From: Enterobacteria phage O276
Sequence record: NC_049951.1
DNA: 41,969 bases
Strand: one strand, 5' to 3'
Part shown: in pieces, positions 19,651 to 21,802 of the stretch
How the letters are laid out: each line of letters opens with the position of its first letter
How positions within the stretch are numbered: the stretch's first letter is position 1
Translations under genes and position numbers: made by a program
The notes under the pieces: generated by a model
What the model saw: only the letters and a program-made list of their open reading frames with translations
Database searches by the model: none
What the model was told of the DNA's origin: nothing

Positions 19651-19788
19651 ATGGCAGTAAAGATTTCAGGAGTCCTGAAAGACGGCACAGGAAAACCGGT
19701 ACAGAACTGCACCATTCAGCTGAAAGCCAGACGTAACAGCACCACGGTGGTGGTGAACACGGTGGGCTCAGAGAATCCAAATGAAGCC
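19651..19788 (+). pseudogene. stf: side tail fiber gene stf, 5' remnant only; tfa absent
   Basis: MAVKISGVLKDGTGKPVQNCTIQLKARRNSTTVVVNTVGSENP then the sequence leaves lambda stf at about 19779-19789. Confidence 0.8.
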
Positions 19789-20742
19789 ATAGGCATTTGT
19801 TATTTTGGCTCTGTCAGCTGCATAACGCCAAAAAATATATTTATCTGCTTGATCTTCAAATGTTGTATTGATTAAATCAATTGGATGGAATTGTTTATCA
19901 TAAAAAATTAATGTTTGAATGTGATAACCGTCCTTTAAAAAAGTCGTTTCTGCAAGCTTGGCTGTATAGTCAACTAACTCTTCTGTCGAAGTGATATTTT
20001 TAGGCTTATCTACCAGTTTTAGACGCTCTTTAATATCTTCAGGAATTATTTTATTGTCATATTGTATCATGCTAAGTGACAATTTGCTTATGGAGTAATC
20101 TTTTAATTTTAAATAAGTTATTCTCCTGGCTTCATCAAATAAAGAGTCGAATGATGTTGGCGAAATCACATCGTCACCCATTGGATTGTTTATTTGTATG
20201 CCAAGAGAGTTACAGCAGTTATACATTCTGCCATAGATTATAGCTAAGGCATGTAATAATTCGTAATCTTTTAGCGTATTAGCGACCCATCGTCTTTCTG
20301 ATTTAATAATAGATGATTCAGTTAAATATGAAGGTAATTTCTTTTGTGCAAGTCTGACTAACTTTTTTATACCAATGTTTAACATACTTTCATTTGTAAT
20401 AAACTCAATGTCATTTTCTTCAATGTAAGATGAAATAAGAGTAGCCTTTGCCTCGCTATACATTTCTAAATCGCCTTGTTTTTCTATCGTATTGCGAGAA
20501 TTTTTAGCCCAAGCCATTAATGGATCATTTTTCCATTTTTCAATAACATTATTGTTATACCAAATGTCATATCCTATAATCTGGTTTTTGTTTTTTTGAA
20601 TAATAAATGTTACTGTTCTTGCGGTTTGGAGGAATTGATTCAAATTCAAGCGAAATAATTCAGGGTCAAAATATGTATCAATGCAGCATTTGAGCAAGTG
20701 CGATAAATCTTTAAGTCTTCTTTCCCATGGTTTTTTAGTCAT
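19768..20742 (-). CDS. ea47: Ea47-like protein, 3'-truncated fusion ORF (track ORF 19768..20790; probable native start ATG at 20742)
   Basis: AT-rich minus-strand ORF; spacing between the AAGCTT at 19954 and the ATG at 20742 (788 bp) equals that between lambda HindIII 23130 and the ea47 start 23918 (recalled); last codons and stop lie in antisense stf sequence. Confidence 0.5.
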   Translation of the reverse strand: MTKKPWERRLKDLSHLLKCCIDTYFDPELFRLNLNQFLQTARTVTFIIQKNKNQIIGYDIWYNNNVIEKWKNDPLMAWAKNSRNTIEKQGDLEMYSEAKATLISSYIEENDIEFITNESMLNIGIKKLVRLAQKKLPSYLTESSIIKSERRWVANTLKDYELLHALAIIYGRMYNCCNSLGIQINNPMGDDVISPTSFDSLFDEARRITYLKLKDYSISKLSLSMIQYDNKIIPEDIKERLKLVDKPKNITSTEELVDYTAKLAETTFLKDGYHIQTLIFYDKQFHPIDLINTTFEDQADKYIFWRYAADRAKITNAYGFIWIL

Positions 20743-21802
20743 AAAACAATTTAGTGAATTTATCATCGTCCACTTGAATCTGTGGTTCATTACGTCTTAA
20801 CTCTTCATATTTAGAAATGAGGCTGATGAGTTCCATATTTGAAAAGTTTTCATCACTACTTAGTTTTTTGATAGCTTCAAGCCAGAGTTGTCTTTTTCTA
20901 TCTACTCTCATACAACCAATAAATGCTGAAATGAATTCTAAGCGGAGATCGCCTAGTGATTTTAAACTATTGCTGGCAGCATTCTTGAGTCCAATATAAA
21001 AGTATTGTGTACCTTTTGCTGGGTCAGGTTGTTCTTTAGGAGGAGTAAAAGGATCAAATGCACTAAACGAAACTGAAACAAGCGATCGAAAATATCCCTT
21101 TGGGATTCTTGACTCGATAAGTCTATTATTTTCAGAGAAAAAATATTCATTGTTTTCTGGGTTGGTGATTGCACCAATCATTCCATTCAAAATTGTTGTT
21201 TTACCACACCCATTCCGCCCGATAAAAGCATGAATGTTCGTGCTGGGCATAGAATTAACCGTCACCTCAAAAGGTATAGTTAAATCACTGAATCCGGGAG
21301 CACTTTTTCTATTAAATGAAAAGTGGAAATCTGACAATTCTGGCAAACCATTTAACACACGTGCGAACTGTCCATGAATTTCTGAAAGAGTTACCCCTCT
21401 AAGTAATGAGGTGTTAAGGACGCTTTCATTTTCAATGTCGGCTAATCGATTTGGCCATACTACTAAATCCTGAATAGCTTTAAGAAGGTTATGTTTAAAA
21501 CCATCGCTTAATTTGCTGAGATTAACATAGTAGTCAATGCTTTCACCTAAGGAAAAAAACATTTCAGGGAGTTGACTGAATTTTTTATCTATTAATGAAT
21601 AAGTGCTTACTTCTTCTTTTTGACCTACAAAACCAATTTTAACATTTCCGATATCGCATTTTTCACCATGCTCATCAAAGACAGTAAGATAAAACATTGT
21701 AACAAAGGAATAGTCATTCCAACCATCTGCTCGTAGGAATGCCTTATTTTTTTCTACTGCAGGAATATACCCGCCTCTTTCAATAACACTAAACTCCAAC
21801 AT
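20735..21802 (-). CDS. ea59: Ea59-like P-loop ATPase, truncated after codon 355 (no Walker B / C-terminal half)
   Basis: Walker A GRNGCGKTT at 21194..21220; start and the EcoRI site at 20933 colinear with lambda ea59 (recalled); lambda Ea59 is 525 aa. Confidence 0.7.
   Translation of the reverse strand: MLEFSVIERGGYIPAVEKNKAFLRADGWNDYSFVTMFYLTVFDEHGEKCDIGNVKIGFVGQKEEVSTYSLIDKKFSQLPEMFFSLGESIDYYVNLSKLSDGFKHNLLKAIQDLVVWPNRLADIENESVLNTSLLRGVTLSEIHGQFARVLNGLPELSDFHFSFNRKSAPGFSDLTIPFEVTVNSMPSTNIHAFIGRNGCGKTTILNGMIGAITNPENNEYFFSENNRLIESRIPKGYFRSLVSVSFSAFDPFTPPKEQPDPAKGTQYFYIGLKNAASNSLKSLGDLRLEFISAFIGCMRVDRKRQLWLEAIKKLSSDENFSNMELISLISKYEELRRNEPQIQVDDDKFTKLFYD

Follow-up and report, generated by a model that had tools for sequence, protein, structure and literature searches.

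The 340-residue, AT-rich open reading frame (ORF) found at positions 19768..20790 on the minus strand of Enterobacteria phage O276 is, with a probability that we estimate at about 97%, the leftover of the lambda gene ea47, truncated at both ends by the deletions b519 and b515. It is a known artefact of published laboratory deletions and does not represent a novel gene or operon, and nothing in our analysis contradicts this origin. The window, by which we refer to the entire analysed stretch of 41,969 nucleotides (NC_049951.1), is, judged from its sequence, the whole genome of a lambda-type phage extending from cos to cos. King and Perez 2018 (PMC6256539) described O276 as a hybrid of HK022 and lambda of 41,969 bp with a G+C content of 50.7%, which has lost 1,995 bases in b515 and 3,177 bases in b519 and which contains a single G inserted at position 14,267. 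The sizes of both deletions, the inserted G and the G+C content were all reproduced from the O276 sequence, and in these features, as well as in genome length, there is no difference between the window and the published O276 with its b515 and b519 deletions (GenBank record MH547045, raw reads SRR7774037). The endpoints of the deletions are stated in PMC6256539, and the chimeric ORFs, the lost Shine-Dalgarno sequence and the microhomologies that are described here are not mentioned there.

The comparison of the whole window to the lambda reference NC_001416 places the ORF within three collinear lambda blocks. The first of these equates window positions 1-19788 with lambda 1-19787, with one base extra in the window, the second, containing ea47, positions 19775-20747 with lambda 22951-23923 and the third, containing ea59, positions 20738-28863 with lambda 25909-34034. 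The offsets between the blocks imply deletions of 3,177 and 1,995 bp, whose breakpoints are located within three lambda genes. Over its 973 bases, the ea47 block differs from lambda at a single position, and the ea59 block matches lambda without any difference. Further downstream, a foreign segment (approximately 28864-32058) without lambda counterpart is 99.7% identical to the immunity region of HK022 with IS903, and the remainder (32059-41969) again corresponds to lambda 38592-48502. On one side, the ORF is neighboured by plus-strand genes (J, lom and the beginning of stf) and on the other by minus-strand genes (int, xis and later genes). O276 retains att, int and the tail genes as far as lom, and the sizes and positions of both deletions match those given in PMC6256539.

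The chimeric character of the ORF, with ends that originate from the frames of other genes as proposed in the preliminary description, is manifested in its alignment to lambda, where out-of-frame ea59 sequence is followed by ea47 codons 1-323 and an antisense-stf tail. Its G+C content is 31.4% compared to 50.7% in the genome. The 16-codon 5' extension (20743..20790, minus strand) consists of ea59 coding DNA read in another frame, as had been claimed: the ATG at 20790 is out of frame with the truncated ea59 (ea59', 20735..21802), since the offset of 1012 bases (21802 - 20790) is no multiple of three, and two codons (GAC and GTA) separate it from an in-frame TAA at 20799-20797. The mechanically called ORF is 16 codons too long because this out-of-frame ea59 sequence happens to contain no stop for 18 codons and to offer an ATG. 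The genuine remnant, ea47' (19774..20742, minus strand), comprises the native start codon at 20742-20740 (the A of which is lambda 23918) and codons 1-323 of 410, with the third base of the last isoleucine codon contributed by stf. In a pairwise alignment to lambda Ea47 (NP_040606.1), which had been chosen beforehand as the refuting test over ORF residues 17-333, residues 17-339 correspond to Ea47 residues 1-323 with 322 of 323 positions identical. The single exception results from the one base difference of the block, a G at 20076 in place of the A at lambda 23252, which on the minus strand changes Phe 223 to Leu (F223L) in a column that is variable across the family (T, Y, F, S, H, I). The tail (19768..19773, minus strand) contains the Leu codon CTC and the TGA stop from antisense stf (orf-401), and the minus strand accordingly ends in ...GGC TTC ATT TGG ATT CTC TGA, where Ile 323 is encoded by ATT instead of the ATA of lambda. 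Compared to lambda Ea47, the stump thus shares the start codon and, except for F223L, residues 1-323, whereas the 87 C-terminal residues and the ribosome-binding site of the native gene are missing and one foreign leucine is added; the mechanical call contributes 16 spurious codons at the N-terminus.

At the b519 junction (19775..19788), lambda 19777 is joined to 22955 with the removal of 3,177 bp. Both sides share an imperfect repeat of 14 bp, ATCC[GG/AA]ATGAAGCC, in which 12 of 14 positions match and four bases are exactly shared. The plus strand reads ...GAGA-ATCC-AAATGAAGCC, compared to ATCC-GGATGAAGCC on the stf side and ATCC-AAATGAAGCC on the ea47 side of lambda, which places the crossover in the ATCC at 19775-19778, as the following AA (19779-19780) is the ea47 allele and GG the stf allele. 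An unambiguous stf origin is thus confined to positions 19768-19774, which contain the TGA, a single Leu codon and the final base of the codon for Ile 323. The antisense-stf origin of the 3' end had been recognized correctly in the preliminary description, whereas its extent had been overestimated at three to four codons. Similarly, the assignment of the middle part to Ea47 from the ATG at 20742 holds, but its proposed end at about residue 318 applies only if the full 14-bp repeat is counted as ambiguous, since the identity reaches residue 323. Via this 4-bp (12 of 14) repeat, b519 fused stf codon 43 to ea47 codon 323 and thereby took out the remaining part of stf together with tfa and the 3'-terminal 87 codons of ea47 (Ea47 residues 324-410). 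It is because of this fusion that ea47 ends after one foreign leucine at the antisense-stf TGA.

The b515 junction (20738..20747), where 1,995 bp were removed, contains a perfect repeat (10 of 10 bases) that includes the ea47 ATG and that reads GTCATAAAAC on the plus and GTTTTATGAC on the minus strand (20747-20738). In lambda, one copy of this repeat covers ea59 codons 352-355 and the other spans the ea47 start codon. The 3' end of ea59', ...TTT TAT GAC TAA, displays an immediate stop after the repeat, and the TAA overlaps the retained ea47 ATG (ATGACTAA). Upstream of the repeat, the native flank of ea47 is replaced by the interior of ea59, and the Shine-Dalgarno sequence GGAG, located just past the repeat, was deleted. 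The gene ea31 (lambda 24509-25399) lies entirely within the deletion. By way of the 10-bp repeat, b515 fused ea59 codon 355 to the ea47 start and eliminated ea31, the last 170 codons of ea59 (Ea59 residues 356-525) and the ea47 Shine-Dalgarno sequence.

To place the stump in the context of its family, we characterized Ea47 and its homologues, which are classified as Pfam PF26900 'Phage_lambda_Ea47' and PHROG 19262, both without known function. Searches identified 454 homologues at E ≤ 1e-3; among the 120 matches listed, nearly all are about 404-445 residues long and all carry a precomputed PF26900 assignment. The stump is homologous to this family and clusters with full-length Ea47 at 90% identity but lacks the full-length architecture of about 410 residues with its C-terminal strands and is thus a fragment of a member rather than an intact member. 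The genomic surroundings of the homologues are diverse. In Pectobacterium, the gene is part of an integrase-flanked island that also carries AbiTii, FRG, DUF5677 and UvrD-type genes, in Vibrio it is found in an apparent integron cassette array with repeated DUF645 genes, in Aeromonas it has housekeeping genes on both sides, another locus is close to an IS91-type transposase and in Azoarcus the gene also stands alone. The island with AbiTii, DUF5677 and UvrD, the apparent Vibrio array and the IS91-type neighbour are contexts that bear on a possible involvement of Ea47 in exclusion or stress. A PtuA/PtuB pair was found next to the Ea47 homologue at none of these loci in Pectobacterium, Vibrio, Aeromonas and Azoarcus and near the IS91-type element, which argues that Ea47 works on its own.

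Conservation and structure were analysed with a set of 63 homologous sequences. Residues 1-100, which are intact in the stump, form the most conserved part of the protein with a mean column identity of 73% and contain the invariant residues R9, D12, R31, N35, R42, T43, Q49, K52, R83, N84, E87, K88, G90 and D91. The structure prediction of full-length Ea47 that had been suggested in the preliminary description resulted in a confident AlphaFold2 model based on the same sequences (pLDDT 88.8, pTM 0.88), consisting of four N-terminal helices (residues 5-89) followed by α/β elements. A strand encompassing residues 319-329 has three others downstream of it. With its cut at residue 323, b519 interrupts this strand and removes the three others together with the invariant residues E325, W327 and E347. 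In light of this model, the C-terminal domain of the stump would be unable to fold. In a Foldseek search of the full model against the PDB, no close structural neighbour was found, as the best match had E = 0.08 and TM-scores normalised by query length did not exceed 0.16, and a profile of the 63 homologues searched against all PDB sequences retrieved nothing at E ≤ 1. Likewise, the 340-residue ORF, its 324-residue product and full-length Ea47 matched no family in Pfam-A (in a copy without PF26900), NCBIfam and PADLOC; the only hit, to vRNAP_dom (E = 0.03), is at the level of chance.

As a candidate for comparison with the N-terminal four-helix bundle, we considered HEPN-domain toxins (e.g. 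PDB 7ae2_A and 5yep_B), a superfamily whose conserved R-x(4-6)-H motif is absent in Ea47. The string RRLKDLSH near the N-terminus could be read as such a motif in the form R-x5-H (R9-x5-H15), which we rejected as R9 is invariant but H15 is found in only 35 of 63 homologues, and the invariant R83 is followed downstream by K88 and not by a histidine. Scanning the 63 homologues singly against Pfam at E ≤ 10 gave scattered chance matches and no HEPN domain. As a tentative and on balance unlikely scenario, Ea47 might be a stand-alone phage-exclusion or stress-response protein, in which the conserved four-helix bundle would be the working part, with R83-N84-x-x-E87-K88-x-G-D serving as a HEPN-like site without histidine, and the C-terminal α/β half would act as sensor or regulator. 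If this were the case, O276 would be a ready-made deletion mutant of the C-terminal domain, whose stump would be either dead or deregulated.

The literature on Ea47 that we found is confined to its use as dispensable insertion site and to unverified two-hybrid contacts. A CRISPRi screen covering the lambda genome scored ea47, ea31 and ea59 as non-essential (PMC10695390), and these genes are routinely swapped for cargo (PMC9674246); Ea47 showed single two-hybrid contacts with N and U (PMC3224144). O276, which carries both deletions, grows on MG1655 (PMC6256539). With the b region being dispensable and the phage growing, the ORF appears not to be needed by O276.

The predicted pairing with the anti-Shine-Dalgarno sequence amounts to -6.4 kcal/mol in front of the wild-type ea47 ATG in lambda (GGAG), compared to +1.5 kcal/mol before the ATG at 20742 and -2.4 kcal/mol before the ATG at 20790 in the window, where the background is -1.5 ± 2.3 kcal/mol. 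By this measure, a credible ribosome-binding site is present at neither of the two start codons. Promoter and terminator scans, applied to the surroundings of the ORF as well as to the ea47 region of wild-type lambda, stayed at chance level. Leftward transcription from the early left promoter, passing through int and att, presumably still reaches the locus. An exact-sequence look-up in the public collection retrieved no protein that starts at the ATG at 20790, and any protein made would probably be Ea47(1-323)+Leu. Its translation would be poor. Initiation would either lack a Shine-Dalgarno sequence or make use of ribosomes that terminate at the ea59' TAA and then re-initiate, and re-initiation at this stop codon overlapping the ATG appears as the sole plausible route. 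With a cut in the middle of a β-strand and without the invariant E325, W327 and E347, such a product is, on the basis of the model, most likely misfolded and inactive.

An alternative, which we regard as quite improbable, is that expression of the stump yields a protein with retained or newly gained activity, with the N-terminal four-helix bundle and the middle domain acting without the C-terminal domain. Such activity would be compatible with the integrity of residues 1-200, the best conserved part of the family, with the invariant polar cluster R83-N84-x-x-E87-K88-x-G90-D91 on helix 4, which resembles an active or binding site, and with the overlap with the ea59' stop, which could permit translational coupling. 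It conflicts with the loss of the Shine-Dalgarno sequence, with a cut that would disrupt a strand of a confidently modelled domain and deprive it of its invariant residues, and with the growth of O276 (PMC6256539), which implies that there is no strong toxicity; moreover, even full-length Ea47 has no known function.

When the endpoints of deletions were placed at random within the lambda b region by simulation, at least 10 exactly shared bases, as observed for b515, occur with P ~1e-5 and at least 12 of 14 shared bases, as observed for b519, with P ~2.5e-5. The repeats at both junctions are far beyond chance and thus carry the signature of short-homology illegitimate recombination, which fits spontaneous deletion mutants, an origin that is given in work cited by PMC6256539. 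In our explanation, the ORF is the remnant of a gene in the non-essential b region of lambda that was truncated by two deletions of spontaneous laboratory origin, both carried by O276. The same repeats, together with sequencing by single-end Ion Torrent reads of 100-200 bases that were assembled with Newbler (PMC6256539), could be taken to suggest that both deletions are assembly artefacts, in which short reads collapsed at repeats and the real phage contains intact ea47, ea31 and ea59. We consider this to be very improbable, since repeats of 10 and 14 bp are far below the read length and unable to collapse an assembly, the coverage was at least 120-fold (PMC6256539), microhomology is expected at the junctions of spontaneous deletions, and genetic and physical evidence for b515 and b519 as deletions of the lambda parent predates sequencing by decades (cited in PMC6256539).

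The ORF adjoining ea47' on the minus strand, ea59' (20735..21802), encodes residues 1-355 of the 525 residues of Ea59, a PtuA-like ABC-type ATPase. It retains the Walker A motif (residue 195) but has lost the Walker B motif (LVLFDEPEVHLH, residue 387) and everything else after residue 355, and Pfam detects only P-loop fragments in this stump, each below the cut-off. In PADLOC, wild-type lambda Ea59 matches a PtuA model with E = 5e-184 and PDC-M01A with 4e-201, and wild-type Ea31 matches PDC-M01B (HNH nuclease) with 6e-113. Wild-type lambda therefore contains a Septu-like ATPase-nuclease pair, which is destroyed in O276. In contrast to Septu, which combines the ATPase PtuA with the HNH nuclease PtuB, and to the candidate pair PDC-M01A/B, O276 encodes only residues 1-355 of the ATPase, without a complete set of Walker A and B motifs, and no nuclease gene; the adjoining ORF is ea47', and neither Ea47 nor ea47' has a PADLOC match. 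There is thus next to no chance that the ORF is an intact gene of a natural lambda relative that forms a new two-gene defence operon with the Walker-A ORF, an interpretation for which one could cite the operon-style overlap of the two ORFs, their AT-rich composition and location in an accessory region and their listing as intact proteins in public records, but which is refuted by the near-perfect alignment to lambda with breakpoints inside known genes and is further contradicted by the missing Walker B motif and HNH partner, by the length of about 410 residues and the lack of PtuA/PtuB neighbours in Ea47 homologues, by the absence of the same junctions from the other records searched and by the documentation of O276 as laboratory construct (PMC6256539). 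That this interpretation would be a mistake had been anticipated in the preliminary description. The search for the b515 and b519 junctions covered collections of phage and E. coli genomes, among which the O276 record itself is not included, and found neither of them in another record.

The annotation of the two stumps illustrates how they can mislead. As was predicted, the remnant of ea47 is listed as an intact hypothetical protein: the exact-sequence look-up identified the 324-residue product starting from the ATG at 20742 as AXN57996.1 / YP_009909788.1 'hypothetical protein O276_23'. The 355-residue stump of Ea59 is deposited as YP_009909789.1 'putative transporter, ABC binding casette-like', and both entries belong to Enterobacteria phage O276, on a contig of 41,969 bp. 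Screens for defence systems that are based on gene neighbourhood could take both stumps for a new pair of an ATPase and a protein of unknown function, and such mis-calls are avoided once the stumps are traced to b515 and b519. Our views of phage biology are unchanged by these results, and their value lies in annotation; the added detail concerns the exact microhomologies at the junctions, the ribosome-binding site that ea47 has lost and a confident model of Ea47 without close solved neighbour. The b519 fusion has also generated a reciprocal chimera of 74 residues on the plus strand (19651..19875), which consists of residues 1-43 of Stf (orf-401) followed by 31 antisense ea47 codons and a stop.

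The HK022 immunity region of O276 is bordered on either side by DNA that deviates from the lambda reference, with 25 differences in window 27427-28811, a stretch on its left flank that comprises bet, gam, kil, cIII and ea10, and 55 differences in window 32063-34269, a stretch on its right flank that encompasses the end of cII, O, P, ren and ninB. Both stretches match phage 21 (OL657228, AJ237660) at 99.9-100% identity. An origin of these flanks from HK022 was ruled out, since this phage carries Erf/Abc2 and P22-like replication genes at the same positions. Judged from these sequence comparisons, three parents appear to contribute to the O276 mosaic, and an imm21-type hybrid probably served as its lambda parent. 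The O276 genome announcement assigns all remaining genes to lambda (King and Perez, 2018; PMC6256539). The 1,057 bp IS903 at window 28864-29920 arrived in O276 along with the HK022 segment; its 18-bp terminal inverted repeats read GGCTTTGTTGAATAAATC, and the 9-bp target duplication TTGGAATGA borders the element on both sides.

In the region affected by the laboratory deletions, PADLOC searches with the wild-type lambda proteins identified matches of Ea59 to PtuA (5e-184) and PDC-M01A (4e-201) and of Ea31 to PDC-M01B (HNH, 6e-113). On the basis of these matches, Ea59 and Ea31 form a Septu-like pair in wild-type lambda (24509-26973), whereas in O276 the pair is wrecked by the b515 deletion, which leaves a remnant at window 20735-21802. 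A full-text literature search found no paper tying ea59 or ea31 to Septu. As for Ea47, its homologue in Pectobacterium parmentieri (locus L003, 1-17233) is a single gene in an integrase-flanked island, where it is adjoined by genes for AbiTii, FRG, DUF5677, Barstar and a UvrD-helicase, and the homologue in a Vibrio locus (L007) is likewise a single gene, residing in an array with repeated DUF645 genes that looks like an integron cassette array. Surroundings of this kind are typical of accessory or defence genes.

Both deletion stumps are treated as ordinary proteins in GenBank and RefSeq, where neither stump is flagged as a pseudogene or fragment: the ea47 stump (window 19771-20742, minus strand) is listed as 'hypothetical protein' (YP_009909788.1) and the ea59 stump (window 20738-21802, minus strand) as 'putative transporter, ABC binding casette-like' (YP_009909789.1). 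The b519 deletion has also generated a reciprocal chimeric ORF on the plus strand (window 19651-19875), in which Stf residues 1-43 are followed by 31 antisense ea47 codons and which an ORF caller could report as a small protein.

Smaller deviations from the lambda reference include one additional G at window 14267, between genes L and K (GAGGCGTATT vs. GAGGCTATT in lambda), which is likewise given in the O276 paper (PMC6256539). Around R, Rz and bor, the window differs from lambda at five isolated bases, 39085, 39897, 39900, 39931 and 40055 (lambda 45618 and 46430-46588), all distant from the phage 21-like stretches.
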